This document shows positions 7,901 through 58,200 of a DNA stretch of 64,000 nucleotides, one piece after another. The position numbers and the translations under genes were made by a program. The first letter of the stretch is position 1; each line of letters starts with the position of its first letter. This stretch comes from Vermamoeba vermiformis (taxonomy: Eukaryota). The DNA lies in assembly GCA_045837725.1 (NCBI GenBank), contig JBEWZL010000302.1, positions 248,001 to 312,000 of the forward strand, in the 5' to 3' direction. Under the pieces are notes generated by a model, which saw nothing but the letters and a program-made list of their open reading frames with translations, was not told the origin of the DNA and ran no database searches.

Positions 7901-10900
7901 ACTTACAGCTCGTGATCTTTTTCTGACGGGCTCATCGTTCACAGCTGCAGAAGCATCTGATTCACTCTGCGACATTTCATCTGCTTTGCGCTTTGTGCCA
8001 CGTTTGGTCACGGACTTGTCTTCGCCGTCCTGTGCAGAGGTCTCTGTACTTTTTGTTGACTTTTTCTCTTTCGGTGGTGCAGGTGCTTTCACTGCAGCAC
8101 CTTTCAACGGGGTCTTCTTCTTTGGCGGTGTCGTGATCGCTTGGACTGCCGCCACGGCAGAAGGTCTCTTCTCGCGCAGTTTTGCAGCCTCACTAATTGA
8201 CAGTTGAGTTGTAACTTCAACAGCTGGTTGGTTGTTGATTGTTTCCTTCGCGATAGACTCCTCCTTTTTCTTTTGTTCGTTCATCGATTTGATGCGAGTA
8301 GTGCCTGGTTGTTCTATGCTGTCTTCGCTGTCACTGCTGCTCTCGCTACTCTCGCTGCTACTGCTGTATTCATCAATGATACGTCGCTTCTTGGCTGGCT
8401 TGGCGAGCTCTTCAGGATCTACATCGGGGAATACCAGTTCTTTGCCGATAACGCTGCTTTCTTCTTTCTCATCCTCTTGGAGCATGTTATCATTCTGTCA
8501 ATGAGTATTAAAAAAAAAGCTTTTGTGAGCCAGACTTACATTTACATCAACATTATCGGTCACCGTAGGGACAAGTGTAGACACATCGGCTCCGCTGGCA
8601 CTGCCTTGAGGCTTGGTCGGCGATACGTCTGCAGAGCTCTTTTGCTTTTGTTGTGAAGGCGTAGCAGCTATTTTGTTTGGTCGTCTAGACATGAGGGGTG
8701 ATTCTGCTAAGTCATTGGAACTTGGCCTTCTTGTCTCCAACTGTGGCACCGGTTTTGGCTGTGGTCGGGCGACAACGGTCTAAATAGAATTACGTAAGCT
8801 AATTAATCAAAGACGGTTGTTGAACCTACCAGTTTGCCCTTGGCTTCTTGTTTGACAATCCAGTCTTTCAGCGCACTAATGTCTTCAATCTCTGCGGCTG
8901 TTCGAGGCTCATAGCCCTCGTCTAAGAGTTCATCCACGTCGATGGAAGTGTCTTTTATCTGTTCAACTCCGGTGTAGTCGCTTCGTTCTTTTGCTTCGTT
9001 GTAGTCCTGCTGCAGTGTCACAGCACGGAAGCAGTAATTGAACAGCTTTAAAGTCGGCACATTGTCCTTCTTGAGCCGCAAAGCAAATGCCACTTCCTCG
9101 AACTGCAATCAATTAGCTCTAACTTGGATATCGATTGTCACTTACCTTCTTGAGCCCTGGGATGTAATTCGAGCCGCGAGTCTTATTGACATTCACGAGC
9201 ACGCATTTAGTCAACGAGGACTTGTTTTTTGCTTCGTCAGTTGTTTTAGACGCAGCTGTGTCGTGGTATCTGTGCGTGCAAGTGTCAGAACTGCTAGCCA
9301 CTACCTGCGACAACGTACCGAACAAAACCAACCAGCCCGTAGTCGTTGATATCTTCGCGGCCCTGTGCATACAAGAACGCTTCTTTAAACATCTCATCAG
9401 CCTATCATTGCCTAGGTCAATAAAAAGATGTTGATAGACGAAAGCACTCACTGTTTTGCGCTGTTTTGTGTTTTGGCCTTGCACGTGTTCAAGCTTTGAA
9501 AACTGAACCAAGTTGTCGTCACAAAGCCAAAAGAATGGCAACTCAATTGAAGTGCCGTCACAGTCTGCGCCTTCTGCCATCTGATGCAACGTATTAGCTA
9601 GTGCAGCACGCCTTTGTGCACCACGCTTACCCTTTTTACAACATGTCTCGCGTAACTGAGTGGCCGGTTGCTCTCGGGTAGAATCAACAGCAGCACATTA
9701 GGCATTGATTTGCGATAGAGTTCTGCCTCACTTGGATCCACAACAACAGTCACTACTGGATTCGCTGTTTGTTTGCCCATGCTCGGATAATTGGCGCTGC
9801 CTTTTTTGAAACTGACACCCAAGAATGACACGTTTTCCGAACGTGGACCTATCATACATTAATAAGAAGCAACAATAAGCGGATGTGTCATACCCAGCAC
9901 ATAAGGAGACTCCCAATTAAGGTGTGCAATGTCAGCGTGGCCACGACTAATGATGAAAGTCGGATACACGATCTCTTTGTCTACGGTGCCTGCCTTGCAA
10001 CTGGCCACAAAGTTAAAGAACTCGTCGACCTTCCGCTTTGGTCCTTCAAGATAAAGTTTGATGTCCGTGAAGTCTCCTTTGCTGTTCAGACTCTTGTAAC
10101 AAACACCCCTAAACCAGATATTAGTTGTGCTCGACATAAATACTCAGCACTTACCGCTTCTCGATGACTGTAGACATTAGGCCCGAAGAGCCCTTTGACA
10201 CACGAATAGCCTCGATATACTCAGATAAGTTTCTTGTTGGACTCCAATACATCTTCACTTTCGGTGGTTTTGGTGATGTCGCTACCATTGTTAAGGGCTT
10301 CTTACTCTTCGAGTCCTTGCTAATGTTCGCAATGCTCGGAGCTGGTACCTTCTCTGTGATTTTTGTTGGAGTGCTCTTCGGTTGATCCGATGAGCAGGAC
10401 TTCTCAGCACGTGGCTCGGGACTGACCGGTTTAGTTTCGTGTCTTCTGTAGTCATCTCTGGGGTCCTTGTTATAATCACGAGCTGGCCTCGGGTCTCTGT
10501 CTTGGTTGATATCCAGCCCTGGAATATAATCCGAGCCACGCTCTTGTCCAGTACTCGAAAAATCCGCGCGGATTCGCTTGCCCATGTGAACTGTTCTGTG
10601 CACTGCATACAACGCTTTTTGCGCGTCTTCTACTCGTGCAAAATCGACGAATGCGCATCTAATTCATGAGGTTAACTCCGTTAGTGCTAAATACACCAGC
10701 ACTTACCCTCTGAACTCGCCGAATTGATAAATCTTTTTGACACCTATCACGGTGCCGTGCGGCGCCACAAGTTGTCTGATCATGTTCTCTGTCAATTCGT
10801 TCGGTAGATTACCAAGAAACAATGACTTGGATGGCTTGTTCAGTGGCTTGCCGGCTAGTCGAAGAATCAGTCTCGTGTAAATATGACCAATAACAACTTA

Positions 10901-12273: not shown

Positions 12274-12981
12274 TTGAATCTGGATCAAGTCTTTCTGCTA
12301 TCTTACAATATCTGTATAATTTAAATAAATTAGTACGAATATATTACTACTTAATTTGTTCGTAAAACGAGAGATAGGTTGCGATGCAATTTTATAAAAT
12401 GATTAATTATTGTTATAATGGAAATCTTTCCTGATCTAATCGATTTACAGGTGATCGTTCGAAATAATAGTTTTCATGCGAATCGAAAATATTGGTGCAT
12501 CAATTGATTTAATTATTGGCAAATCTTACGAGATCCTCAGATCAGATCTGAAGCGTCAAACAGTGCTTACCCGCACTAATCGTGCGACACGTTGCAAATA
12601 ATACTAAAATGCATGCCCTTAAGTGTTGGAGCAATGAGAGCGATTATTTTTTCTACACGTTACAGCAGAACACACTCTAAGCCTGGCCGCCGAGTAGACG
12701 GTTGTCGCTTTTCTCCGGCCCTCAAAGATCAATCCAATTTAAAGATAACGCCACTAACACCTTTTGGTACTCTACATGGCTGAGGTAAGTAGTCCATCCG
12801 ATTTGATCCGCGCCACAATTTTTTTAAATTCAAAAATTAATTGCTGCCGTACAAACTCATTCTCTATGACCAACCATTTAATTTAAAATTATTTACAACT
12901 ATTAAAACATTAATGATACACTATTTACAAGCGGCAATATGCTATAAAATATTGCAAAATGGTGCTCGCAAGCTGCACCTC

Positions 12982-15900
12982 TTACATCTTCTTCAAAGTC
13001 AGGCTGTAATATAACTTGCTGCCGTCTTTGATTTGCTGCAACTTGGCTTGCACAGACAGCAACGAGCCGTGCTTGTCTTGTGTCAAAACCGGACCAGCAG
13101 CGCAGGCTTGAGCAAATTCAGCGATCGATGGGTAGTGAGGGATCAAAATCAACACCTTCTTGCCGACAATTTCAAACAACTTGTAGCCGAATGTATCGCA
13201 CGCTACCTTGTTGAATGCTTGAATATTACCAGCTTCATCTGTTGCCAAAGAAGATTAGAACTTGCTCCAGGATGTATAGCGATCGTTGAATACTCACCAA
13301 AAATGATCGCTGAGTCCTTGGACTTCTCAGCAGCCTCGCGAGCTTGAGTCAACACGTTCTTCACTTCGTCCTTGCCAGGACTAGCAGAGCCTTCACAAGG
13401 CTTCAATTTGAACAGCCACATGATCAAGTCGTGGCCAGACGATGACACTTCACGATCTTGAATTTCAAGCTGAACTGTCACGGTGGATCTGTCCCGTTTG
13501 CGAACTGTGTCAGTTGTGTGGATCACGGTGTACTCTTCGGACTCGTTGTATTGGCCCTCCAAAGCAGTGTAATACATCATCTCCTTAGACAAGACCTTGT
13601 TCACGGGCAAGCCGAGCAACTCCGAGGACTTCCAACCGGACAATTGTTCCCCAGCGTTGTTCACCCACTGGATCTCGCCGTTAGAATTGGCCACAATGAC
13701 CGCCTATTGATTATGTTAGTCATGCACCTTCGATCACGATATTTTCACACGTACCTCCGTCGTTGTGGCGATGCCAAGTTGCCGAATCACTTGTTCGCTG
13801 AGTTTAGTCTCTTGGCGCTGGGAAATCACCAAGTTGACACTTCGCTTGGTCTCAGCCTCAGCAACAAGCAAGTCCCAGTTAGTCTCGTGCAAGAGAATCA
13901 AATCATCGTCCTCGTCCTTGAACTTCACTGTGACATCACCGTACTCGGTAGCAATTCGCTCGGTGAAGTCTGCGAGGGTCGTCAAACGGAATTTCATCAT
14001 CCGAAGATCACCATTGAATGTGCACTTGAATGCAATCGAATCTGCGTCTATCAAGATAGCGGTTAGAAAATAATAATAATCTCGGAGAATTTAATTCTTC
14101 ATTCATGAACAGTTCCGTATCCAATTAATTAAAACAGTAATATTCTTACCTCGTGTGTTTGAGGCGCGGGGCGGGGTCGGATCCCGGTAATTAGCGACGG
14201 GTTTAGCTTCACGGAGTTCACAAATAGCCTTGGCTAACTTCTTCAAATGCCCAAGCTTAGTAACGCCAATCTCCTTCAAGTCATCCTCTTCCAGATCTAG
14301 GATCTCCTTGCCTGAGATCGAGTTCTCAATGAAAGAGCCCTTGTAATGACCTAGATCTTGGCACTCGAGCCATTTAGTGACATCGGCAGTGGTCCACGAG
14401 GCAGGAGCTAAAGAAGTAAACTAAAGTTAAAATTTACCGGCGCGCGACAACCAACGTTGTAAAGAGCTATTTACGTCATTCCATTGACTAATGGCAAGCG
14501 AGATATTTTTTTGATAAACTTTGCGTACCTTTTGCACTGAGTTGTTGCAACACACGCTGCTTGTTCTTCATATCCATCGATTCTTTGATCTCTTGAGTGC
14601 TGATGATGAATTGCAAGACATGTCCGGTGTCTGCGTTGTAGATCAACTCTTCTCGCAACTCTTCTGCCAGATCGGAAACTGCAGCGAAATTAGAGTCATG
14701 ACTATCGCTAAAATTAGTGATAGACATACCTGGACTCAATGCCTCGTAAATTGCATCAGGAGCGCGCTTATTCATCACATCCATCGGCGCAGAAAGCGAC
14801 GCGGGCTTGAAATCCGAGATCTGGAATTTCAAGCGAATGTTTTCGTGAACTTTCGCAAACCCACCAGGAGAACCACCTGATAATGGCCCTGAGGCACTCG
14901 ATTCTTCGAAGTCTGAATCAGAACTGCTATCGACTTGATCTCTCGCCCTGTCAATGTGTATAAGTTTTTTACCGACATTAATTAATTGCCACATTTGCCC
15001 TATAAGGCATATGCACGTAAAACTTACATGAACGGTGCGATAACCAACGTGTTCGAAACTTGTGTTGCAAGTGCAAACATGTGGTAGAGGATCATGGATT
15101 TGATTCGTTGTTTGTTCGCTTGAATGACTTGAGGCATGCTTGATGACACTACATAGCTCGCAGTGATGGTGTTGCCGTCGTTGCTGACTCGTTTGGCCAT
15201 GTTGAACGACGATGTGACTTCTTCCAATAGGTCTACCATGTTGACACTCACAGTCGGAGCAGGTTCAGTAATGCTTTCAGCACCAGCTACATCGCGAGGG
15301 TTAAGTTGATCGTACATCTCTAAGAAGTTCGTCAATGCCTTTGTGAGTGGGGTTTTGACAGCCGGATCAAGATCGGCGAGCTGAATCTGTTGACCGATGC
15401 CAGCAAAGCACGATCGGATGATGCCAAAGGTCACTGAATTCATATCTCCTCCTGTGCTGCGCTTATACTGTGCGATTTCACATTAATTTCATGAAATCAT
15501 ATTGATAAAATTTGGGGACTTACCTCAGCAAGCGAGGAACTAAAATTAGTTCGGCCGCTAATTCGTCGTTCTACTGCTGGCTTTCGCTCTTTGTCGCTAC
15601 TGCCCACGCTGTCACGTCTATTGACTCGAGAGCCAGTGCGACCTCCTTGATCGATTGAGTCTCGACCGGACACTCCCTCATCTGTCGTGGTTAGTATACT
15701 TTGATTTAATATCGCAGTCAGCAATCATACCTTCTTCGGGCTTAATCTTTTGATACAGCGAGTATAACTCGTCTTCATTCATTACTAAGCTGAAAGCGCG
15801 CAGATCCACAAAGAAATCCAAGATCGCCGGTTGCGGCGTGTAGTCGTACTTTTGCTTTTGAAATCGCAGTACTTGGCCGAACACCTTAGCAAGTAGGGCC

Positions 15901-17885
15901 ATTTTTTCCCAGTTAATGTATCCTTCTTCGTTGGTTTCCAATTCTTCAATGTAGATCAGATCGCGCATTATCAAACCTGAAATTGAATCAAAATTAGCTC
16001 CCGGCAACGACCATGTATTCTATTGTAAATACCTAAAATAGGAATACCGCCCTCCGTGGTGGCATCCAAGGCGTCGCGATATGGTTTGTAATTGCTTGTG
16101 TGGTTCAAAAACGCGATCAAGCTTTTGTGTAGCGTTTGGATTGGTGGCGGCAATTCTTTCCAGCTGCGATGCAAGTTGCTGATAACAGACATCGATAGGG
16201 TTGAGTAAAGTGCCATGAGTGAGGAGTAGTTGCCGTTTTGTCGGAGAAGCTGAATAACGAAATTACTCGATCTGCAAGATCTAGCGATTCGGAATTATAC
16301 TTACGTCCATCAATTGAATAAATTTAATCAAATATTGCGCCCTAACCTTATAATTAGGGGCCATCAATATCTGCGTTGCGGCCCAGTAGCTGACCTATCG
16401 AGATTGAATTAATTTACCTTTCATGAATCTGGACAGCAACGAATTTACCTCGTTAAAGTGATCAACAGACTTCTGCAAATTACTCTTGTTATCAGGGTCC
16501 AGTGATTTCTTCTCAAAATTCTTGTGGTAGAACTCGTCGATGGAAATCCGCTTGAACATGAAGTGATCTACGAGAGTCAACTGGCGTGCAACCTCCTCAA
16601 GAGGAGCGTCCAAGAACTCGAATCGCTTGCGATTAGGACCAGGAGAACTAGCAACCAATCGACGGGGAGATTCTTGTGTACTGTCTTTCTGTTTTGGGAA
16701 GAAATTCCGTGAGTTTAATTCGGGTTGGAGTTAATAATGGATCCAGTTTACAACACAGTACTAAAATATTAAAGTGCATACCATAGCTTGGCGGATAAGC
16801 GCCGCGCAGCTCTTTCCTTGTTCTCCGTGTTGCAACTCCAACTCCGCCAGGAAGGAGTTAAACTTTGTTTCCCACGTGGAATCACTACGCCAAGCGGAGT
16901 ACTTGCATTCGATGAGCTTCTTGATGATATTTAAGATGCTGATTACGAAATTAGTTCTCGATCCACTTGTGTCACCGCAATTACGAAACTTTCAGTGAAG
17001 CATTACTTACCGAAGTCTCAATGTGACTTCTTCGTCTTTTGGAGGGCTCCTGTATCTGTAATAACTTGTTAAGGAAAGGTACCTTAATAAGTGGCCACAC
17101 GATTCAATTGGCATCAGAAATTACAATTAAAAATTTGGTATAAAACGCTTCAAAATAAGAATTATTCGGTGCTTAGGATACATTGAGATTAATAATTCCG
17201 TTATTTCTTGCGGTGTCGTCCAATAGTCCGTCGTCAATAAGAAGGTGTCGATGAAAGAGCGATCTGGTTCATAAATTTTAATACGCGATCTTAAAATTAA
17301 TCTATCTGGGTATATACCTTGAAACTTGAGCAGTAACTGCAATAGTCCAGGAATGGTAGCCTTGGTTAGTACTTTGTCTTCCCAGATCAGCGGCCCTTTG
17401 CCCTGTAATGAAAGATCAATTTTGGTTACTGAATATTTTGTCGACAACCAAGGAATTGGTACCTGTCGTTCTGACGTTGATTGAGAGCTCGACAGACTCT
17501 CCTTTTAATAAGATTAAGTAAGCGTCAAGAATGCATCTACAATTTACAGCATTCGCAAATAATGAAAACTCACCTCCAAACTAGAAGTTTCATCGAATGA
17601 GGTCAAAAAGCTCATGGGGGGTGATAAAGCTTCTTTCTTTCCCGAGCTGACCTTTAGTTTAATCTTATCTTGCGATTTGTGCTTGGATTTACTGTTTCGA
17701 AGTTTTTCGGATGGCTTTGGGCTGACTGCTGGAGGTGGCGATGTCACAGCTGGCTTTGGTAAGGCATTCGAAGTCGTCGTGGCTGTCAAAACTTTACTCA
17801 TGTCTCTTGATTTTGATGGTGACTGCGTCCGTTCGTTGTTAGGACTTGTGCGAGGGGACAATGGATCCGGTGTCTTGTTCGACAT
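12982..17885 (-). CDS. RasGEF (REM + CDC25) fused to a degenerate histidine-kinase-like region, SAM, PB1 and two PAS domains
   Basis: REM: FIDTFLLTTDYWTTPQEI. CDC25: EEVARQLTLVDHFMF, GNYSSLMALYSTL, NYKPYR...IPILGLIMRDLIYIEE...INWEK. SAM: WTTADVTKWLECQDLGHYK...DLKEIGVTKLGHLKKL. PB1: KFKDEDDDLI. PAS: NNAGEQLSGWKSSELLG and FNKVACDTFGYKLFEIVGK. Exons join in frame; the exact splicing at 14410-14530 is ambiguous. Confidence 0.82.
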
Positions 17886-18333
17886 TCGGATCTGTGGTAC
17901 TCGTATTGCGATCAGTTGGAAAAATTAAAATTTCAATCGCGGCCGAAAAACCAAAAATGAAAGTACACAAAGGACGGAAAAAATCTCCCTTCACAACCAG
18001 ATCCCGAAATTGGTCACGTTTATAGTTCACTAATACGGAGTCTGAACTAATTAACCGGTGGGTAGTGTATGGATTCTCAGTCGCCAACGATAAACTGTAA
18101 ACGTTGGGCCATTACTAAATCGAGACCGGACAAATAATTGCAAAGCTTGGATAGATGCTTCACTGAATGCGGCGGAACTTCACTGAACGGATAGAAAACT
18201 TTATCCTTATTTTCATTACTTCGGGCATTGTCAGAAACAAAAACGACTTCTCCATGGCATATTTTATCAATTGAAAACGAAGAAGTTGGAATAGCAACTA
18301 CATCCACCGTACACATCTGTAATTTTTATCAAC

Positions 18334-20232
18334 ATGTCATTATTTAGCAAGAAGAAGGATAAAACCGACAGTTCGAAGGACAAGAAGGATAAGAAGAGTT
18401 CAACTGACAAGAAAGCCCCTAAACTCTCCACATCCTCCAAGCATCCTTCGAGTAATGACTTGTCATTCAAAAAGGCCAACTTGGATCAAAAAGGTAATTA
18501 TTAATACAATTTGCTATCATAACGCACTTCGTGTGCCTAAATTAGTAAAGAGAAGCTCGTTTTCTCCGCTTCGATCTGAAGTTCTGGCCACAAACGCCTA
18601 ATTGATGGCCTAAAACAGTTTATTTAACTCTTAACCGACAGATCCAAAGGATTGGAACCCAGACGAAGTCGCCGACTGGTTGGATCTGCTGGAAATCTCT
18701 GAAACAAAGGAACTCTTCGTTGACAACGCAATTGGAGGCAGCGAGCTGTTGGAACTCACGGACACGGACTTGCGCTCCATGGGCATCGCGAAAGTAGGCC
18801 ACAGAAAGAAAATTCTTTCAAAGGTCGCTGAAATGAAGGGCATCAAGCTCGCTGACAGCAGCAAGACCAGCATGACTACTTCGATGAGCGACGATACGAG
18901 CTTAGATGTGGGTAAGTTTTTGCATATCTCCTTATTTAGTAAACTTACAAAGCTTTGCGGAAATTCTAACCTGTCCCTAGATCAAATCCTCGTCAAGTGC
19001 TTCCTTAAAGATGAGGTGCGTACGATGAAGATTCGAATGAACGCGCTGTTCGACGAGCTGCAGAAAGACATTCAAGAGATGTACAAGAAGAAACTGACAA
19101 TCAAGTACAAAGATCAAGACGGCGATGAAGTGACCATTGCTCGCGACGAAGACTTGAATGAAGCTATTAGAACGATCCCCAACGGTCCGCGACGCATTTT
19201 CAAGCTCTATTTGTACGAGCGCAAGTCCAGATCTGACGGCGAGAAGAGCGATGACAGCGGCAGCAAGTCTCGTGCTCCTGAAGCCAATGCTGCGATGTCA
19301 ATGATGTTCTCACTGTTCGACTCGCTCTTGGACGCCTGCATTGTCATCAACGACAAGTGCATGGTCCAATACGCGAACAAGTCGTGCGAGAAGTTCACCG
19401 GCTTCAGAGCCCGCGAGATGGTTGGTCGCAACGTCAACATGCTGATGACCGATGAGCACAAGGGCTCTCACGATGCCTATGTCAAGTCATATCTTAAGAC
19501 TGGCCAAGCTAAGGTCATCGGGCAAGGCCGTGATGTTGTTATTCAGCGCAAGGTTAGTAATTACCCAATAAGGAAAAAATTCAATTTTTGTGGATTTAAA
19601 TAATTTAAAACATTGACTTACGAGTTAATTAGGACGGAACTATATGCCCTTGCCGTTTGGAAGTCACTGAAAAGAACATGGGTGACACGCGCTTGTTTGT
19701 TGGTATGCTGAAAGAAGTCAGAGAAACAGTGGCTGCCAAATCATTGTTGCAACAAGAACGTGAAGTGCTTGACAACTTGATTGTCGCTGCTGTCGTCATT
19801 GATGCTTCGGGCACGATTCATTGCTTCAATCACGCGGCAGAGGCATTCTTTGGGTTCAAGCTCGTTGAAGTTGTCGGAAAGAATATTTCAAATTTAATGC
19901 CCTCGCCATATAAGGAGGTAAGTTCGCAGCGAGTGTTGTGTTAAATTTAATTAACTGAGCGGCGAACAAATCGCGCTTCAATTTCGTTGAGATATGATTT
20001 GTGCCTCAGTTTACAACATTTACTGATCGAAATTCAATTCACGCAGAAACACAATGAATACTTGCAAAATTACGTCAAAACTGGCCAAGCGAAGATTATC
20101 GGCATTGGACGCGATGTCGTGATTCAGCACAAAGACGGATCTCTTAAACCTGCCCATTTGTCCGTGACTGAGAAGCGCGATGGTGATAAGAGATATTTCA
20201 CTGGCATTCTCCAAGAGGCCAAGAACAAATAG
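18334..20232 (+). CDS. SAM-PB1-PAS-PAS protein, paralogue A (FixL-like heme PAS)
   Basis: Starts MSLFSKKKDK. SAM WNPDEVADWLDLL...LRSMGIAKVGHRKKIL; PB1 IKYKDQDGDEVTIARDEDL; PAS1 GRNVNMLMTDEHKGSHDAYVKSYLKTGQAKVIGQGR; PAS2 [30 protein letters not shown]. Stop TAG at 20230-20232. Confidence 0.9.
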
Positions 20233-20648
20233 ACGACCTTGATGCGCAAATTTAACAATTTTGTAATTCTAATGTTAATACCAATGTACTATAGCAGCTA
20301 TAGAGCTTTTTAAACCATAAAATACGATCATTCTCAATTAGCAGTTGTTACGATATGGAATTTAAAATCGTGCAGCAAAAAATTTACTTTGACATTGCCG
20401 TTGAAAGGCGGAATAATAAACTTTTTCCTTTTTTTGGATCCGTGCGTTTCACGAACGATTGCCGGCATCAGATCATTCGAATATTATGACAATGTACCTC
20501 GATAATCTTACGGTTCAATGATTATGCCGGGCGAAAGAATTCTTCCTACGGGTTGATCCGTTGATGCTATTAATGGACCTTCTTTACGATATTAATAATA
20601 ATACAAAATTGAAATAATACACAAGCTATGAGTCTGATGACTAGCAAC

Positions 20649-22454
20649 TTATTTCTTGGGCTCTTGCAAGACACCAGTAAAGATCTTCTTGTCCTTATCG
20701 CGCTTCTCAGTGACAGACAAAAAGGCGGGCTTCAAACTGCCGTCCTTGCATTGAACGACAATATTACGACCGATACCAATGATTTTAGCCTCACCAGTCT
20801 TGTTGTAGTTCTCGAGGTACTTATTATGGGCCTAAAGAATCAAATAATAGATCAGCACTTGCTTTGGAGCTTCGTATCGCACAAAATAATAGAGCATACC
20901 TCTTTGTGCGGTGAAGGCATCAATGAAGAGACGTTCTTGCCAATAACCTCGACGAGTTTGTAGCCAAAGAAGTTCTCAGCGCTCTTGTTGAAGCAGTTAA
21001 TCAAGCCAGTCTCGTCAATGACCATTGCAGGCACTAATAACCCGTCCAAGACTTCACGTTCTTGTTGCAAGATGGATTTAGGAGCCACTGTTTCTTTGAC
21101 TTCCTTCAAAAATCCAACAAATAAGCGCATCTCGCCAACAACTTTTTCAGTGACTTCCAATCGGCAAGGAGCAATAGATCCGTCCTATATAAAGAATTGT
21201 TAATTATATGCACCCATATTTAAATCTCAATGAGTGGCTTACTTTGCGTTGGAATACGACATCGCGACCAGTTCCGATGACTTTGGCTTGGCCAGACTTA
21301 AGATAGCCTCGCAAGTAGTTGTCGTGATAAGACTTGTACTCGTCAGTCATCAGAATATTAACGTTACGGCCAACAATTTCTCTGCTTCTGAATCCAGTAA
21401 ACTTCTCGCCCGATTTGTTCAAATATTGAACGATACCCTTCTCGTTGATGACGGTAACAGCGTCGATAAGAGTGTCGAACAAAGAGAACATGAGAGATAG
21501 ATTGGCGTTGTTGGAAGTCGCTGCTTCGCTACGAGCACCACCTGCCGCATCTCCTTCTCGGCGCTCATAAACGAAGATTTTGAGCGTGCGAACACCGCTG
21601 GGCAATGATTTAATGGCTTCAGAGAGGTCCTCGTCGCGACTGATGGTTACTTCATCGCCATCGGAGTCCTTGTACTTCAAGCGGAATCGTTTCTTGCCGA
21701 ACATATTGCCGATCTCTTGGCTCAACTCTTCGAAGCGCATGCCAGCTTTGGCTTTGAGAGTACGAACTTCATCTCCGCACAATGCCTTAATGAGTACTTG
21801 GTCTGTTTAAAGGAGTACGTTAAGCAAGCGCCAAAAATAGCGGATTTACTAGATAAACTTTAACTTTTCGATTAAGGATTATGGAACCGTAAATTCAGCA
21901 CAACAATTTAATACAGATTTTATCCGATTTTAGTTTGTTTGAAAATCCACCTACCTTGGTCTAGGGAAGTATCCTCCGAGGTGTTTGTTTTTTCGGTACG
22001 AGCTCCGCCCTTCAATTCAGCAACTTTTTGCAAAATTCTCTTGCGTTGACCAACTTTCGTGATGCCCATATTCTTCAAGTCAACATCAGCCAGATCCAAC
22101 AACTCGCCACCAGAGATTTCGTTTTCAATGAACACTGCGCGAGCATCGGAGATGTCCAGAGTATCGAGCCAGTTAGCAACATCACCGACAGTCCATTGAC
22201 CGGGCTCTATTATTAATTGCACAATTTGTTAAAAATTTAAATTCATCAACGTGTCAACGTCCACTAGATTTGATTTTTTTCGACTGCAATGACAACTTAC
22301 CTTTGTTGCGGAGTGATTCCTTCTTTTCTGAAATACTCTCGCTGTTGTTGAGACTGCGCGAGCTTCCTTTAGGCACGACTTCAGGGGTTTTGGATGAGCT
22401 CTTGCTGGAGGACTTGCTGCTTGAAGTCTTGTCTTTCTTCTTGAATAGCGACAT
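20649..22454 (-). CDS. SAM-PB1-PAS-PAS protein, paralogue B (FixL-like heme PAS)
   Basis: Starts MSLFKKKDK. Same domain order and matching intron positions as paralogue A. PAS1 GRNVNILMTDEYKSYHDNYLRGYLKSGQAKVIGTGR; PAS2 [30 protein letters not shown]. Confidence 0.9.
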
Positions 22455-49200: not shown

Positions 49201-50247
49201 CTGCATCATGTTGAAAGAGCTGAGACCTGAATATCAACTCGACACTGTGGCCAATCCCAAGTGGCTCGAATCATTCGCTGAAGGTAACTAAGCACCTGTT
49301 GTAAATGAAATATGCCCGTATTAATCATTGCATAGATTTCCGTCGCCGTTACATGTCCTTGTTGGGCTATGAATTGAAAGAGTTCTCGTGCGAGACTGCT
49401 TATCTAATCTTTGCATCAATTAAGCTCTCTTCGTCGTTCAATAAGCGTAAGTAATGAATCTCAAATGATACAGAACACTATACTTACGTTGTTATAATAG
49501 CACTTGATAGTCGTGAAGCCCTCAATGACTTGTTCACCGCACACGACATGAAACGTCTCGAAGGCTATGCACACAATTTGTTGGACTATCACGTGATCAT
49601 TGATCTCTTGCCCACGCTCTCGCGCATCTATTTCTCCGACAGATTGGCCTCGCGTAACGTTAAATTGGCTCCTTCGCAAGAGGCAATTTTGTTGGGCTTG
49701 GGCTTGCAACACAAGAACATTGACCAACTCGCTGTAAGTCACTGGCCCCTATTGTATGTAGCGCAGCTGTTCATTGATTGTATTACAGAAAGAGTTGTCG
49801 CTCGAGCCCAATCAAGTGATGGCATTCTTCAACAAGGTCGTGCGAAAATTGAGCAAAGTGTTCCGTGAGATGGAAGAGGCTGACGAGGCCAAAGCCTTGC
49901 CCGAAGCCTATCGCGCCAAAGATGTGGAGATGCATCCTGTTGAGAACACGCTCGAAGAGGACCTCACCGCTGCAGGCAACAAGGCCTCAGACCAGCTCAA
50001 CAAGAAGCACAAGGACTTGTTGCAGAACCTCTCTTTGCCCGACTACGCCATTGTTGGGGATGAGAATGCGTGGCGCGAGAGCACTGCGGCCATCAGCAAG
50101 GGCAAGATCCCCAACATTGTCAGCGTGAAAAAATTAAAGCGCAAACTCGGTGATGACGACGGACCTCTGGCATTCAGCAAACACAACGACGAAGACGAGA
50201 CTGAGCGCAAGATGAAGAAGATCAAGAAGAAAAAATTGAGAAATTAA
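46279..50247 (+). CDS. NAT10: RNA cytidine acetyltransferase NAT10/Kre33
   Basis: KKIDNRIRVLLENG...HRSLFVIVGD, LTASRGRGKSAALG, IDEAAAIP, STINGYEGTGRSL, SSHYKNSPNDL, GARVVRIATHP...GYG. Confidence 0.97.
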
Positions 50248-50275
50248 GACTGTCCCACCGCTAATAAACAGCATG

Positions 50276-52865
50276 TTATTTTAAAATCGAGTACAAGATG
50301 AATGCAGTGAACAGCGCGCGATCACGATCAAAGTGCCCGCCCTCGAATGTCTTCAACAGAATGTCGCGCTGTCGCTCTGGTGGCATCACATGTCTTAATT
50401 TGGCAATAAACTTGACTGGTTCCCAATACTGCACACGTGGATCATTCATGCCAGTGGTCACCAGACAGTTCGGATAGGCACGGCCAGGTGTCAAATTGTA
50501 CATCGGGCAGTAGCGCGACATAAATGCAAAGTCTTCAGGTCTGGTGGCATCACCCCACTCATCGACCTCGTAATCGCGCCACGGCACTGACTTGTCCGCC
50601 ATCGACACCAACACGTCCACAAAGGGCACTTCTGCGATCACTGCGCGGAACAATTCAGGCTGCAAGACAGCCGCGGCAGTGACCAATAGCCCGCCAGCAC
50701 TGCGTCCTCTGATCGCGAGTTGTTCCGCACTCGTGTAGCCGCGCTCAATCAGGGCCCGAGCACACGCGATCAGATCTTCAATGCTGCGCTGCTTCTGCGC
50801 TGCCTTGCCGGCAATGTGCCACCATCGACCACGCTCGGTACCACCACGCACCTGTCAACTATTCAATATCCTATTTTGGAGTACTGTCACTACTCACGTG
50901 CGGGATGGCGTAAATTATTCCGCGATTGAGCAGACTGAGTCGATACAACGAGAATCGCGGCTCTTTGCTGGCACCGTACGCACCATATCCGGACATGAGC
51001 ATCGGACTGGGCTCCGAACTGCGCAGGTCTTTGCGGTACACGAGGGAGATGGGCACTTGACACGTGTCATCCAGTGACGGCACAAACAGCCGTTCAGTGC
51101 AGTACTGTCCCGCGTCGTAGCCCATCACGTGCTGCTGTCGCACCAGGGTCAGAGCCCGTTCAGTGAAATGATAGGCGTAGAGTGACTTGGGCGTCGTGAG
51201 TGACGTGTACGAGAGGTACAGCACGTGACTGTGCGCGGATTGGTGGCACTTGTCGCGATATACCCACGTGTAGTTGTCATCGATGTTGCCTGGTGCGCAG
51301 CTGTACACTGTTTCACTGAACGGCACGTAGTGACAGTTGTCGGTGAGAGTTATTCCGCTCTCATCACGTGATGGATCGATATCCACAACGCGAATCTGTT
51401 TCGTGCAGTTCGAGTGTTGTTCGTATACCACAATCTGCGCTATAATTAGGACTGGAAGTGCATTACCAAATATAGAAATACCTGTGAGTCAAACGCGTCC
51501 AAATTAAGCAAATAAATGTCGTTGTTATGTGGCAGCACCAATTGCCATTTTTGGAAGTCCGATGCGTGCTCAACAGCCACTCTCCATATTTGGAAATTCT
51601 CCGCCTCTTTGTTGCAGCCGATGTAAAAATAGCCCTGGTGGTGATCGATGAAGTACATCACGTGATCAGCACGTGGTTGCAGCAGGGTGAACTCACTCGC
51701 AGTGTGCGCGGAGGTGAAGCGAATCTCATTTGCAGACGAGGAGTGTGCGACTAAAAATAGATACTGCTGATCGGTGCTCGCGTCGAGTGACAGCACAAAC
51801 CTGTCGTCGTGCTCTTCGTACAGCAACACGTCATCCGCTGTGTGACACGTGTCAGTGGAGGGGCATGTCTATTTATAGTAACGTACCGTGCGGGTCTGTC
51901 ACGTGACTGCGATAACAGCGTGTGGCGTGCAGGCCAGTCACGTGACTCGTGTACAACAGGTGCTGACTGTCACGTGACCAGCGCATCGCTTGAAATGCCT
52001 CCATGCTGCCCACGTGATTAATCTCGCGCGGGAGATCGCAGCCCTGGTCGATGTCTCGCACGCGCACGGTGTAGTCCTCATTGCCGTGCTGATCGGTGCC
52101 CCACGCCACGTAGCGGTGATCGGGACTGATCTCAAACATGACCACGTCACGTGATGGCAACACGGTGCACGGATTGACACCTGTCAACTGCCAGTCTGCA
52201 CCGCTTGGTGTGCTGCGAATAATTCCGTTCTCGGTCCACGTGTACAACCAGGGACCAAGCTGCACGAATTAGCCATGTATGGCAAGTGTTACTATATTTA
52301 GCACTCACGCGCCAAGTACCACGTGACATGTCACTGCCGCGCTCAATCTGCTCGAATTCTTGCAACGCTTGACTCTGTGTGCAATGTCAGCGATCAGTGC
52401 ACTCTAATACTATGAGATATGTGGTCTATTGACTATTGTTTTATTGACTATTACGGTATTGACTATTGTGTATCTACAGTGTCATAATAGCACTCTATTG
52501 TGTGACCTACATGATAGTGCTGCAGACGCGGAGAATGCACCTGTTGTTCAGTCCAGCTGGTCTCTGCGGCAATGTACTGCTGCACTGCGGGATCTGAACG
52601 AGTGTCATCGCGCAGCCAATAATAGGGGTCAGTGATAGTGTGCAGCGGTGTTATATGCAGTTGTTTGTCTATGCGCGCGGCTGTGGGGTATTCTGAAATT
52701 ATTAGGAGGATAATTAGCAACTAGTATCACATAATTATAATTATCTGGTGCCTGCAAGCATGCACAATTAGCGTTGTTAATTATAATTAATATTCGCTGT
52801 CACTGGCATTGAGATCCGCTTCATATGCGGCTCTTTGACGCACCTGTCTTGTCTGCGGTCTGCAT
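50276..52865 (-). CDS. Oligopeptidase B / prolyl oligopeptidase family S9A
   Basis: DPYYWLRDD, GYGAYG, HVRGGTERGRRW-type segment, catalytic GRSAGG, NDPRVQYWEP, GGH. Confidence 0.92.
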
Positions 52866-52986
52866 TGCGTGCACTAGGTCCGATGAGTGAATTAATAGCA
52901 ATTCTTGCGATCGTACGAGTACATTATCACTTCTCTTGTGTATCTAGTCGTCACCGTAATTTATTTTCAGTGAAATTCAAACACAT

Positions 52987-54496
52987 CTAGTTGATCTGAT
53001 TGAGCGCGTGAGCCAAGTCACCAATCAAGTCCTCCACATCTTCCAGACCCACCGAGAGACGCACCAAGTTGTCGCTGATGCCCAGCTTAGCGCGCTCCTC
53101 GACAGGCACCGAGGCGTGTGTCATGATGACGGGGTGATCCACCAGCGACTCCACGCCACCGAGCGACTCAGCCAGTGCGAACAGGTGCACATTTTCCAAG
53201 AACTGACGCGCTTGTGTGATGCCGCCCTTCAAGAAGAAGGTGATCATACCGCCATAGCCCTTCATCTGCGCCTTGGCAATCTCGTGCTGCGGATGTGACT
53301 CGAGCCCCGGGTACAAGACACGCTCGACCTTGGGGTGTGCGGTGAGCCAGTGCGCAATCTTGGTGGCACTCTTCTCGTGCTCGCGCATGCGCACGTGCAG
53401 GGTCTTGGTGCCGCGCAACACGAGGAAGGAGTCGAAGGGCGAGGGGATGGCCCCGACTGCATTCTGAATGAACTTGAGCTTGCGATAGATCTCCTGGTCC
53501 CTGCCACACACCACACCCATCACCACATCGCTGTGGCCGTTGATGTACTTGGTGCACGAGTGCATCACCATGTCCGCACCGAGATCCAGCGGGTTCTGGA
53601 AGTAGGGCGACATGAAGGTGTTGTCCACCACGAACATCAGCTGCTTGCGGCGTGCGATGGCAGCCACCTTGCGAATGTCCACAATCTTCAACAGCGGATT
53701 GGTCGGTGTCTCGAGCCACAACAGCTTGGTGGCGGGGGTGATGGCGGCTTCGAGTGCAGATTCATTGTTGAAGTCCACAAAGCTGAATGAGAGGCCTTGC
53801 AGCTGATTGACGCGCGTGAAGAGACGTCGAGTGCCACCATAGAGATCGTCCATGGCCACCACGTGATCGCCGCTCTGCAACAGCGTCATGATGCCGTTAG
53901 TGGTGCTCAGACCAGATGCGAAGACAACACCTGCATATAGCGTTAGAATAGGACGATAAATGGTAGTGCCTATTATTGTAGTGTACCCCATTCAGCATTC
54001 TCAAGCGCTGCCAAGTTGTGTTCAAGTGCATCTCGGGTAGGATTGCCAGTACGAGCGTATTCATAGCCCTTAATAATCCATCGGTATTAATACTACGTGC
54101 ATATTAATAGTATGAATTGCATACGCGATGAACACCCGGAGATTGTTGTTGAAAGGTCGTAGACAAACTGATCGGAATGATGACCGCACCTGTTGCGTGT
54201 CATTGTTAATTATATTATAAATTTCATGGATAGGAGCACGTATGATAAGTATATAATACATCTATTATCCGCGCATCAATTCATGGTGTAATAATTTTTA
54301 ATTACCGGAGCTTGGATCTGCGACTTGTCCGGCGTGAATGGCCTTGGTACCAAAGCCTTGCTCTCTCTTCTTAGCCTATATAACTTGATTATTATTATTG
54401 TCGCAAAGCGGAGCGAACGAGTGAACTTACAGAGATCTGGATCTGTTCCAATACTTGCAGTTGCTGTGTGGCGGTCTTAGTGCTCTCCATATTCAT
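52987..54496 (-). CDS. CTH: Cystathionine gamma-lyase (Cys/Met PLP-dependent enzyme)
   Basis: GFGTKAIHAGQ, YEYARTGNPTR, DDLYGGT, LETPTNPLL, VDNTFMSP, PLP lysine in HSCTKYINGHSDV, AESLGGVESL. Confidence 0.93.
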
Positions 54497-54828
54497 AGCC
54501 CTGATTATTATGACTGATTAGGACTGATCACTCGTGCTGTGTTAATCAGGTCGAATAAATCTTCTGTTTTTCAGCCGAAACTTCTCGAGCCACGCGCCTG
54601 TCAATCAACGCACTAGTGATGCAATAATACAGTACAATCACTCGATTATGCATCGTGGTGAGTAATAGTGGTGCGTGATTGCTCATTTGGGCTGATACAG
54701 CTCTAACTATGATGATTACTATGTTACTTCATAGCTTCCGCCTTCAATGCACCTTTTAAATGCAGCTAGTTACATATGCATGTGTTTAGTATTCTACGAC
54801 CGAGTGCCGCGATCACATGCAGCGCGAG

Positions 54829-54850
54829 ACACGTGACAAAATCACGTGAC
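54829..54850. promoter_or_regulatory. Tandem CACGTG E-boxes (ACACGTGAC and TCACGTGAC) in the divergent CTH/HTT intergenic region
   Basis: Two CACGTG at 54830 and 54843 in AT-rich non-coding DNA between divergent starts. Function is inferred only. Confidence 0.35.
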
Positions 54851-55202
54851 AGATTTTCTTACCAGATCTGACACCAACGATAAAGATTTTCAACCTCAGA
54901 ATAAAGCACACATAATACATGTGCTGTTGTATGAATGTATTTATTGCCGATTGAATAAGACAAGTACGTGCGTGAATTAACCTTCAAATTGACTGTGACT
55001 CATTTCATACGCACAAACTAATTAATAACAATTATTGTAATATATTACACTGCAATACTCGTATTTTAGTGCGCAATACTGCGCAGTACGCGATAAAGAA
55101 TATTAATAATAATTATTTTTCGTTGTTAGCGCGCGTGTATTATGAACACCCATTGAACAGCGGACATTAAGAAGACTTTAATATATAAGCCATACATCAC
55201 AC

Positions 55203-58200
55203 ATGGATCTACTCAAAGCGTTAGATGTGCTCTCGACTGCACCGCTGAAGACCGAGTCAGAAGCAGATCGACAAGTCAAGTTGAAAGCACTGCGCACCAT
55301 CGACGAACAGCTCAGCTCCCCTGCACTGCGCGGCACGGCTGATTTCCCGCGCCTGCTCGCCTTCAGCTTGCACAGTCTGCTGCGACTGTTGGGTGACAGC
55401 GACATGAATGTGTGGTCCCTCGCTGAAGAGGTGCTGCACAAGGTCGTCAAGGGCCTCATACGCACACACCACGACTGGATCATCGTCGAGCTCTACAAGG
55501 GACTCAAGGGACAGCGATTTGCAGGCAGAAGTCAGCGCGTGTCACTGGCCCTGCTCGGTCACGTGATTGGCTGGACCTCGCGCTCGCGTCTGAAGAAGTT
55601 GACAGCCGCGATACCGAAGCTGATTGGTCAACTGATCAGCACTGCGCAACAGGACAGCTTGCTCATCGAGGCACTCGCACTGCACTTCGAGCCCATCATG
55701 CGGCACGTGGCACCCTACATCACTGGCACGCAGGTGCTGACCCTGGTCGATCACTGCGTGCTGGCCCTGGTCGACACACAGGGAGCAGTGCGCAGATCAG
55801 GGGCCGGACTGATCACCACGCTGTGTCGGTACTGGCCCTCGCCCGCACTCTTCTATCACGTGTTTGGCACGCTGCGTCAACTGCTGCAGGTATGGCCGTC
55901 TCTTTTGACACTTGTGACAGGTGTGAAATATTTGGTTACTGACACGTGTCATTTTTGCAGCGCACCGACCAGAGCAGCGAGCACGACATACACACGATGC
56001 AGGGTGTGCTGCACTGTTACTTGCGTCTGATTCGCTTGCACCTCGAACAACCGCGGCACACTGCGGAATATCTCCTGCCCGAGATACAGTTCATCGCCTC
56101 CCTCGCCACAGATTCACTGAAACACACGGACAGCAATGTGGTAGTGTCAGCCCTCGAATTGTTGCAAGAACTGCTGTCCTCATTCCTGCACGTGCTGATA
56201 CACGTGTGGACACCAGAGCGCGCACGTGATCGCTTCAAAGCCCTGCTCGACCAGTTCGAAGTGATGCTGTTCGAAGACAGTGCCGTGCGCATCTCCAGCC
56301 AGTCCCTCATCGTGGCGTGTGTGGCGCACATCTTCGAGCACTACTGGATTGACTACGCGCACCTGTCACGTGATCACAGCACTGCACCGAGCACCGTCGT
56401 CACATTTGAGCCGCTGAGCATGTTCCTCGAGTCCAAGCTCGCCAAGTGGTCCTCGCTGCTGGCACACTCTGATCCGCAGCTGCGCGGTCAGGCTGCGCTG
56501 TTCGTCGCCGCCACGCAGAGTGCTGTGCTCGTCAATCCACGTGCTCCACCAGGGCCCGAACCCCTCGGAGCCTGGGCCGCGCAACCACTGCTGCAGCTGA
56601 TCCTGGACGACGAGTCCTCGGTGGCAGCCAAGTGGGGTGGTCAGGCCCTGGCACGACTCTGGCCCGCACTCGTCTCGCACGCCCCGCCTGCCCTGCCCCT
56701 CAGTGTACTCGCGCGCATATTGGCTGTCAAATCTGACGCCTATCTGCTCGTCAAGATCAAGGTAACTTGCACTGATTGCCTTATTTGGTAACTCACACTT
56801 CGCTGCAGGTGCTCAGTTTTCTGTCGCGCGTAGATTTCCGTGTGATTGCAGCCCTGGAAGAGAAAATTCGACACGGCAATCACGTGACTCAAATTGGCGA
56901 TCTGGTACGGCACTTGCCTAATCGGGTTAATGCGTATGTTGACATCTTTGCAGTCCATCAACCGGGGCACAGATCTGCAAAAGACAGCCCTGGACGTCAT
57001 CTTGCAATATCTCGATGACGCAGATCACCGTGTCCGACGAAGAGCTGCAAAGACATTGGTCAAAATATTGCCGCAATTACACGCCGCACCATATTTGGAA
57101 GGTGCGCAGAGTCGATTGCAGGCCCATGCCGTGGTGCTGGCGGAATATCTCCACGGTGCCCCCAAATCTCAGAGCGACAAGCTGAATTACCTTTTATGGC
57201 GCATCGAATCGAGTCTGAATGCGCGCGAGAGTCAGCAGATCAAAGGCGTGTACGAGTGGTGTGCACTGCTGTCGCTGCAGGGTCACGTGATCCCCGCGCA
57301 GTTCATTCCGATCATGCTCGAACACCTCTCTGCCACCAATCTCGCCACGCATCTCGAGACACAACTGCACGCCCTCACGGTCATGGAGCACATGGTCGGA
57401 GAATTGACCGGAGAATTAGCGCCGTACAGCGTGAAGATCTTGACGCACGTGCTCAAAGTGCTGGCAATCACCACGTACATCACGCAGAACAAGAGCGCGA
57501 GTCAGGTGCGCGAGATGAAGAGTGCCGAGGGACTGGCCACACCGCTGCTCGGCGAGGCGATCTATTTGGCACTCTGGGACCGACTCCGCGACACGCATCG
57601 ACTGGCACAGGCGAGCTTCACGGCCAATCTGTTCGATCAGATCCGCTGTCAAGCACTGCTGGCACTCGGCGCGACAGTGCACGTGCTGGGCAAGAATGCC
57701 GTGCCGTACTGCGAGGAGCTGTTGCTGCACTTGCCCGCGCACCTCGACGAGTACCCCTTGGTAAGCGCGCACGTGATGGTGTGCTGAACGTGTCTAACTG
57801 TCATTGCCTAATTAGGAAGTACTCACGTGCGTGCGCGAGCTGTTCGTGTGCGTGTTTCATCCGCAGAACATCAGCAACACCATCCCCCAGGGCAACAGTT
57901 CGCCCAATGCCAGCACCACCCCGCGGCGCAAGAAACCTGCCAAATTAGGACTGCACGAGAAGTTGTTCCACCCGGAGTTGTTCCGCCGCAGTGTGAAAAA
58001 GAATTTGAACTACGCGACCCTGGACATCAACAGCGAAGAGGAGTGGGTGCTGAATGCCAGCACTATAAATAGCACCACCAAGAGCAGTGCCACCGCTAAA
58101 AATACGCTCAAAATGTTCGAGCCACTCGTCACGCTGGCCCTGGCACGCTACCACAACAGTCAGAATCACGTGCTCAAGAATGCCGTGCTGGCACTCTTGG

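Follow-up and report, generated by a model that had tools for sequence, protein, structure and literature searches.

Sensing of O2 by haem-PAS domains is textbook knowledge in bacteria, and to our knowledge eukaryotic O2 sensing relies on prolyl hydroxylases or on H-NOX cyclases. Here we describe a locus of the amoeba Vermamoeba vermiformis with three adjacent genes that end in a SAM-PB1-PAS-PAS module, found at positions 12982-22454 of the 64-kb stretch of contig JBEWZL010000302.1 that was analysed (hereafter the window, 64,000 nucleotides). Two of the genes, paralogues A and B, encode a polybasic N-terminus followed by SAM, PB1 and two PAS domains and look like soluble gas sensors, and the third encodes a Ras guanine nucleotide exchange factor (RasGEF) of the REM-CDC25 type, followed by a linker and SAM-PB1-PAS-PAS. 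The kind of sensor is known, the architecture and the output are new, and the locus is part of a larger, undescribed protist family.

Among the described systems, the haem-PAS domains of rhizobial FixL (1d06, 1dp6, 1xj6, 8js5) share with A and B the fold and the pocket, comprising the proximal His, the distal Arg and an Ile/Leu/Ile-type triad, at 39-46% identity over ~100 residues, and a helix connects the tandem PAS domains, as it does in 8js5. In contrast to FixL, A and B have neither a HisKA/HATPase kinase nor a FixJ partner, show the haem signature in both PAS domains, carry eukaryotic SAM and PB1 domains and spliceosomal introns, and miss the equivalent of Arg206. DosP of Escherichia coli, a haem-PAS cyclic di-GMP phosphodiesterase (9cdr, 1v9y), is comparable in that a haem-PAS domain is followed by a second PAS domain and output is reached via quaternary change; however, this bacterial protein has its EAL output covalently attached, whereas A and B are devoid of an output domain. 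Concerning assembly, the SAM and PB1 scaffolds CNK, Ste50-Ste11, p62 and Par6-aPKC use head-to-tail or heterotypic contacts to bring signalling enzymes together, and the PB1 Lys and OPCA Asp residues are likewise kept in the sensors and in the RasGEF tail. None of these scaffolds is known to have a gas-sensing domain, as is proposed for A and B.

Eukaryotic PAS domains with FixL-like features have been described before. In plant HD-ZIP III factors, the MEKHLA domain is characterised as PAS-like and closest to FixL, with a cofactor that is not known (PMC4496561). Like A and B, it is a eukaryotic PAS domain whose closest relatives are bacterial FixL-type sensors. The FXL proteins of Chlamydomonas are reportedly another case of eukaryotic FixL-like PAS, and as far as we know neither these nor MEKHLA are attached to SAM-PB1 or tied to Ras regulators. 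The atypical soluble guanylate cyclases of animals (C. elegans GCY-35/36) are cytosolic haem O2 sensors that drive aerotactic behaviour, and combine an H-NOX haem domain with cyclic GMP output as opposed to the haem-PAS domains and Ras proposed here. A literature search, which was poor in subscription journals, returned no paper describing the SAM-PB1-PAS architecture or PAS domains of V. vermiformis, so that the statement of an earlier note on this DNA, that no eukaryotic system of this design was described, stands as far as this literature goes.

Gene models were obtained by protein-guided spliced alignment and checked against read-supported junctions, and the introns of the three genes, short and 25 in number, are all of the GT..AG type. 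The two putative sensors are laid out as follows:

18334-20232, + strand: paralogue A, 5 exons, 490 amino acids (aa)
18334-18493, 18642-18911, 18981-19552, 19633-19917 and 20047-20232, + strand: exons of paralogue A
18334-18492, + strand: polybasic N-terminus of paralogue A
18493-18835, + strand: SAM domain of paralogue A
18989-19207, + strand: PB1 domain of paralogue A
19310-19725, + strand: PAS-A of paralogue A, with His307 and Arg327
19759-20214, + strand: PAS-B of paralogue A, with His431 and Arg451
22454-20649, - strand: paralogue B, 5 exons, 477 aa
22454-22301, 22206-21955, 21802-21243, 21184-20900 and 20831-20649, - strand: exons of paralogue B
22007-22201, - strand: SAM domain of paralogue B
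21567-21773, - strand: PB1 domain of paralogue B
21101-21491, - strand: PAS-A of paralogue B, with His295 and Arg315
20667-21067, - strand: PAS-B of paralogue B, with His419 and Arg439

In line with these models, Pfam detects SAM, PB1 and PAS in single-exon open reading frames (ORFs) of both genes (+ strand 18635-20232 and - strand 22228-20649). At 99% identity there is a single public gene call for paralogue A, P0003 (NCBI source, 256 aa; window 18835-19603), which crosses intron 2 and terminates in intron 3; the existing annotation of A is therefore a fragment.

Judged by sequence and predicted structure, both PAS domains of A and both of B belong to the FixL type. The best PDB sequence matches of P0020, a Trinity transcript product that carries the EukProt label Vermamoeba vermiformis and is 94.3% identical to A of the window, are FixL haem domains (1d06, E 9e-25; 8js5, 6.7e-22; 1dp6, 7.4e-22), followed by DosP (E 1.3e-14), which aligns across PAS-A and half of PAS-B. 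Pfam PAS matches reach 88.9 and 96.7 bits in the A/B sensors, in two stretches each. An AlphaFold2 (AF2) model of the sensor, built from a 22-sequence alignment, has a mean predicted local distance difference test score (pLDDT) of 82.4 and shows four well-folded domains connected by disordered linkers; within these domains the pLDDT exceeds 90 in most 10-residue blocks, and the block means of the two PAS domains lie at 82-96. In Foldseek searches with this model FixL and DosP lead, the FixL tandem PAS ranks first (E 1.3e-18), and the superposition on the haem domains of Bradyrhizobium FixL (BjFixL) gives a root-mean-square deviation of 0.6-0.8 Å and a template-modelling (TM) score of 0.92-0.95 at 40-42% identity. 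With HMMER, the BjFixL pocket residues His200, Ile215, Ile216, Ile218, Arg220, Leu236 and Ile238 align to H, I, I, I, R, L and V of the sensor; this numbering is reproduced by a chain-index offset of 139. Each of the four PAS domains in A and B has the proximal-His motif and the IGxGR motif with the distal Arg, and the hydrophobic distal triad is kept as I, L and V opposite BjFixL Ile215, Leu236 and Ile238. In BjFixL, Arg220 hydrogen-bonds bound O2. Both the haem-ligating His and the O2-contacting Arg are in place, and together with the PDB and Foldseek matches this bears out the FixL-type assignment that the earlier note had made. Over 22 aligned family proteins, the His does not vary in either PAS domain, and the Arg is invariant in PAS-A and present in at least 90% in PAS-B. 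We infer from these data that A and B probably bind haem, with O2 as the candidate ligand, and act as gas sensors.

The putative sensors also carry both types of assembly domain. On exon ORFs the SAM domains score above the curated Pfam cut-off (A 61.1, B 54.9 and the RasGEF gene 66.0 bits), with Shank, DGK-delta, Caskin and CNK as best PDB SAM matches, and polymer formation is a prediction. The PB1 domains of A and B reach 49.1 and 59.3 bits, and that of the RasGEF tail reaches 18.8 bits, under the cut-off of 23.6. Type I/II PB1 domains are defined by a Lys in beta1 together with an acidic OPCA motif; here, the beta1 Lys (K159) and two OPCA Asp residues (D187, D189) are invariant over eight sensors and the RasGEF tail. 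Pfam found no catalytic domain in A or B, and the HisKA plus HATPase_c kinase core is absent from A, B and the RasGEF protein alike. The first ~52 residues contain 15 (A) and 13 (B) Lys plus Arg against 7 and 6 Asp plus Glu, and hence both genes consist of the module and a basic N-terminus without enzymatic output, just as predicted from the first reading of this DNA. Both sensors open with MSLF and a Lys/Ser-rich stretch (18334-18492; 22301-22454), and Lys/Ser-rich starts are also seen in more distant family members. This polybasic N-terminus could be a membrane- or nucleic-acid-binding tail.

The third gene is transcribed divergently from A, with the two ATGs (17885 and 18334) head-to-head and 448 bp apart, in agreement with the distance of about 450 bp given earlier:

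17885-12982, - strand: RasGEF gene, 18 exons, 17 introns, 1230 aa, junctions from the P0048-guided alignment and reads
16860-17363, - strand: REM domain
15897-16592, - strand: CDC25 RasGEF domain
14536-15461, - strand: low-confidence linker
14202-14393, - strand: SAM domain of the RasGEF tail
13815-14039, - strand: PB1 domain of the RasGEF tail
13398-13772, - strand: PAS-A of the RasGEF tail
12985-13328, - strand: PAS-B of the RasGEF tail
13298-13703, - strand: exon covering PAS-A, preceded by the last part of the PB1-PAS linker and followed by the first part of PAS-B; Tyr at the site of the sensors' proximal His, no IIGxGR
17886-18333, no strand: divergent intergenic region between the ATGs of the RasGEF gene and paralogue A, 448 bp, presumed shared promoter

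In single-exon ORFs of this gene (- strand 17504-12982), Pfam finds RasGEF_N, RasGEF, SAM, two PAS domains and a sub-threshold PB1. P0048, a relative of 1230 aa that is 88.5% identical to the RasGEF protein of the window, matches RasGEF_N at residues 132-215 (38.3 bits), RasGEF at 274-450 (155.8 bits; model positions 1-180 of 181) and SAM at 832-895 (59.7 bits), with the best matches in its PAS stretches at 1005-1106 (PAS, 51.9 bits) and 1136-1194 (PAS_4). Exchange activity and GTPase specificity are thus predictions from a full-length CDC25 domain accompanied by REM. For comparison, B and its counterpart P0029 are 94.1% identical.

The fusion of the RasGEF with SAM-PB1-PAS-PAS is real and is made as one transcript. 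In the contigs of run X1, 11 of 15 pieces match the window to at least 99%; the contigs contain no introns and have a depth of about zero in both intergenic stretches (17715-18356, bins 0-0.57; and 20283-20603), and therefore derive from processed RNA. All four introns of A are seen as GT..AG joints in spliced X1 contigs, introns of B in X1, X15, X21 and X23, and these four runs together provide such joints for A, B and the RasGEF gene. Record 1 of X1 (2135 nt) spans 12900-15454 over six introns and links PAS-B, PAS-A, PB1, SAM, two linker exons and the large linker exon in one transcript; record 5 of X15 spans 14244-14939 over two introns. In addition, the close relatives at 88.5% identity have unbroken ORFs of 1230, 1125 and 1010 aa that run from REM/CDC25 through the last PAS, and a further relative ORF of 1119 aa is among the matches listed. 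The RasGEF transcript consequently does not end before the SAM exon, a possibility the earlier note had raised against its own reading: contigs splice the linker to the SAM, PB1 and PAS exons.

A few observations concern the middle of this transcript. The X1 contig stops 13 nt short of the RasGEF intron 15468-15523, at the boundary between the post-CDC25 region and the linker, transcript depth is somewhat higher 3' of this intron, over the RasGEF tail, and the ~4-kb contigs of the relatives also give separate ORF calls of 482-486 aa ("son of sevenless-like", the RasGEF half) and 662 aa (linker and module). Based on the split ORF calls, the contig end and the tail depth, retention of this intron or alternative, tail-only isoforms are possible but unproven; they would uncouple the exchange factor from the module.

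Is the tail of the RasGEF the same module as in A and B? By sequence comparison it is a true homologue: aligned to the sensor profile with hhalign, it gives a probability of 99.9% (E 3.4e-32) and 27% identity over 391 collinear columns that reach from SAM through PAS-B. In the AF2 model of the tail, SAM (pLDDT ~96), the PB1-like beta-grasp (~90), PAS-A (70-89) and PAS-B (~95) are recovered, with the F-alpha region of PAS-A poorly predicted and the 240-residue linker upstream at low confidence. The PB1, sub-threshold in Pfam, is modelled as a beta-beta-alpha-beta-beta-alpha-beta unit with a pLDDT of ~90 and is collinear in hhalign. The haem signature, on the other hand, is lost. PAS-A has a Tyr opposite the His of the sensors and is devoid of the Gly-Arg, and PAS-B lacks ~12 residues at the F-alpha helix as well as the Arg; its single His falls into the His column in one MAFFT run and not in hhalign, HMMER or a second MAFFT run. 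A motif scan of the window model found neither H[DNT]x[YF] nor IGxGR in the RasGEF tail. The PAS domains of the RasGEF are therefore not sensors of the A/B kind, and the idea of one shared tail holds in architecture and descent and fails for the haem signature, with a pairwise identity to A and B of 28-30%. With this qualification, the gene models, Pfam and hhalign agree on three adjacent SAM-PB1-PAS-PAS genes within 12982-22454, as originally claimed, and tblastn with three reference proteins found no further copy of the module in the window.

Loss of the signature does not mean decay. Between the window and P0048, SAM is 93%, PB1 95%, PAS-A 94% and PAS-B 97% identical, REM 95% and CDC25 90%, and the inter-domain stretches 77-86%. 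As the identities of the module match or exceed that of CDC25 and lie above those of the inter-domain stretches, the tail is not decaying.

The SAM-PB1-haemPAS combination is not unique to this locus and, on sequence evidence, is a sizeable family. A word-index search yielded 13 proteins from 1093 candidates: seven with SAM, PB1 and PAS, two PB1+PAS fragments, one PAS fragment and three bacterial-type PAS proteins, two of which have histidine-kinase domains. P0020 belongs to the cluster of one of these 13. A profile of eight sensors run against 1.84 billion cluster representatives (50% identity clusters) gave 95,228 matches at E <= 0.001 and 2,091 at E <= 1e-30. In the 150 best representatives, a domain census with hidden Markov models from our own alignment found SAM+PB1 with 2-4 PAS domains in 33, and another 54 exceed 1500 aa (up to 5490 aa) and hold 4 to 13 FixL-like PAS units each (merged count). 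The remaining 63 are at most 1500 aa long and include six partial forms (three SAM+PAS only, three PB1+PAS only); Pfam on 55 of them lists HATPase_c in 19, HisKA in 18, a receiver domain in 13, and guanylate cyclase, MCP and PP2C in two each. In the 33 SAM-PB1 representatives, the proximal His is kept in 87 of 91 PAS units and His plus Arg in 83 of 91. With the stored homologue P0039 as query, the Atlas returned only generic bacterial PAS clusters. One of the multi-PAS members bears the EukProt label Chromosphaera perkinsii.

The giant multi-PAS proteins (P0069-P0112 and others) have the proximal His in 585 of 628 units, and three of them scanned with Pfam contain almost only PAS, save a TPR_TmcB match in P0070. 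To go by their sequences, they would be poly-haem proteins.

Several members of the family connect the module to regulators or enzymes. Two cluster representatives, P0135 and P0136, have the order RasGAP (C-terminal part)-START-SAM-PB1-PAS-PAS with the His intact, and P0149 combines SAM and three PAS domains with PP2C, without PB1. In our tree, a quick maximum-likelihood search, the RasGAP fusions nest among stand-alone sensors in a clade sister to A/B (support 99). A scan of metagenome contigs provided 11 loci, of which three are long, come from one metagenome and are 43-45% identical to A. At one of them (L009, 6294-10474), an ORF of 775 aa with Ank and Rap_GAP (165 bits) runs up to 8618 and so overlaps, on the same strand, the first ORF of the module (8477-8938); Rap_GAP and SAM-PB1-PAS-PAS are therefore either fused or immediately adjacent, and too many GT..AG combinations fit to choose one splice. 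At the second (L008, 1113-10448), a 2501-aa Ank-RhoGEF-Kelch-kinase ORF stands tail to tail with the sensor gene at a distance of ~250 bp, and at the third (L005) a Rieske/pyridine-nucleotide oxidoreductase follows the sensor gene; the neighbours thus differ among the three loci. Overall, the view that putative haem-PAS sensors on assembly domains have repeatedly been joined to regulators of Ras-family GTPases is supported by these gene architectures.

From this, the following mechanism may be proposed for V. vermiformis. A and B would each present a pair of FixL-type haem-PAS domains, with a conserved helical linker between them, on SAM and PB1 domains with both interaction faces. As they have no enzyme domain, their output would have to be ligand-dependent protein association. 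A and/or B would join the RasGEF via SAM-SAM, PB1-PB1 or PAS-PAS contacts, and the activity of the RasGEF on Ras would in this way depend on O2; the module copy of the RasGEF, which has lost the haem signature and matches the catalytic domain in its conservation between strains, may have been retained for docking. Four features suggest docking: A, B and the RasGEF share the module, the PB1 faces are conserved, the haem-less PAS domains are conserved too, and the RasGEF gene and A lie head-to-head. That A and B are soluble sensors of a gas, most probably O2, which use haem, join the RasGEF and make Ras activation O2-dependent is a reading to which we give a little short of an even chance. For haem binding and O2 as the ligand, as for the assembly with the RasGEF and its effect on exchange activity, we argue from sequence and models. 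A complex prediction for the SAM-PB1 part of P0020 (residues 50-225) with that of P0048 (826-995) scored 0.13 against a mark of 0.34, and counts neither way.

A number of points speak against this O2-RasGEF reading, some of them concerning the ligand, some the cofactor and some the coupling. As for the ligand, A and B have Asn, Ser or Gly at the position of the propionate-binding Arg206 of BjFixL (Arg200 of SmFixL), and of the 1017 related PAS units that were aligned only 337 have Arg there. In one study, Arg200 of SmFixL is called important for signal transduction, R200 variants are stated to autoxidise in air while being purified, and the Soret bands of SmFixL are listed as ~418 nm (oxy), 434 nm (deoxy) and 424 nm (CO) (PMC10765370). 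The absence of this Arg, together with the option that two haem-PAS domains in one protein differ in ligand preference, would fit haem sensors of NO, CO, redox state or haem availability instead of O2. However, the equivalent of the O2-contacting Arg220 is kept in all four domains, as is the distal Ile/Leu/Val triad, and we regard a signal other than O2 as quite improbable.

As for the cofactor, haem binding by A and B is predicted from in-silico evidence throughout, that is from sequence and models. The PAS domains might hence be protein-interaction or small-ligand modules of haem-PAS descent without any cofactor, and A and B constitutive SAM/PB1 scaffolds; the RasGEF tail is indeed an example of a module that persists and is conserved without the His/Arg signature. 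Against this stands the His in 960 and the Arg in 762 of the 1017 PAS units, in addition to the invariant His and the invariant or nearly invariant Arg over the 22 family proteins given above. Such conservation is hard to explain without a cofactor, which makes a cofactor-free scaffold highly improbable in our opinion.

The main rival explanation concerns the coupling: the cluster may have arisen by local duplication and domain shuffling, with A and B as haem sensors that act on other partners encoded elsewhere in the genome (such as RasGAP, RapGAP, PP2C or kinases) and the RasGEF using its haem-less tail only for its own oligomerisation, localisation or autoinhibition. In the tree, A and B are sisters (SH-like approximate likelihood ratio test 100), which points to a lineage-specific tandem duplication, and the RasGEF tail shares only 28-30% identity with them and forms a very long branch (2.6 changes per column) that the tree does not place; it is therefore not a recent copy of either. 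The module occurs with several different outputs, and tblastn on the three long metagenome loci matched the module only, with a RasGEF or RasGAP near the sensor genes in none of the three. SAM-PB1-PAS relatives, for which the earlier note had suggested looking, were found, and the RasGEF synteny proposed along with them was not seen at these three loci. GTPase regulators are abundant in amoebozoan genomes, and for this reason the adjacency of A and the RasGEF by itself is weak evidence. Moreover, no other RasGEF-module fusion turned up: a word-index search with P0048 residues 500-1230 at lengths of 676-2153 gave nothing at E <= 0.001, a null that is weak because the protein's own cluster representative (662 aa) is outside this length range, and RasGEF is absent from the Pfam tallies of 22 and of 55 representatives (for the 55, with 25 of 42 families listed). 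Finally, it is from sequence that we infer a binding of A or B to the RasGEF at all.

Four observations speak against mere paralogy: the PB1 interaction residues are invariant in the sensors and the RasGEF tail, this tail is strongly conserved between strains, the RasGEF gene and A are arranged head-to-head over 448 bp, and intact modules recur fused to Ras-family regulators. We therefore consider an uncoupled cluster unlikely, albeit the most serious competitor of an O2-dependent RasGEF assembly.

In the remainder of the window, the flanking genes are not related to the cluster (RRM, chromo, LRR, capping enzyme, LIM, a pyridoxal phosphate (PLP) enzyme of Cys/Met metabolism and a huntingtin-like HEAT protein). 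A sigma-70 promoter scan and a repeat scan of the 448-bp intergenic region, the promoter scan not being designed for eukaryotes, gave nothing above chance. The G+C content, ~0.40-0.47 up to there, reaches 0.50-0.575 over the final 14 kb of the window (50001-64000), where the Cys/Met-metabolism PLP enzyme (52987-53991, 447 bits) and the huntingtin-like N-HEAT ORF are located.

In terms of amoeba biology, Ras is central to the amoeboid chemotaxis machinery. For Dictyostelium aerotaxis, the Discussion of one study states that the molecular mechanism of O2 sensing and transduction is unknown, and O2 sensing in amoeboid aerotaxis is expected there to feed into the chemotaxis machinery (PMC8378850); the same study describes a spot assay with self-generated hypoxia. 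The locus described here offers concrete, clonable candidates, namely a pair of FixL-type putative sensors without an output domain, a RasGEF whose module would suit docking to them, and relatives with the intact module fused to RasGAP. Taken further, SAM-PB1-haemPAS proteins might form a eukaryotic class of their own, not described so far, that senses O2 directly in the cytosol and gates Ras-family GTPases through assembly or fusion with exchange factors and GTPase-activating proteins, and might include the missing O2 receptor of amoebae for aerotaxis and for responses to hypoxia such as encystment, the locus of V. vermiformis then being a split form with two sensors and an exchange factor with a haem-less docking module; we consider this wider scenario speculative and rather improbable as a whole. 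If haem and O2 binding are confirmed, however, O2 sensing in amoebae would become directly testable, and a widespread signalling family of protists would be revealed.

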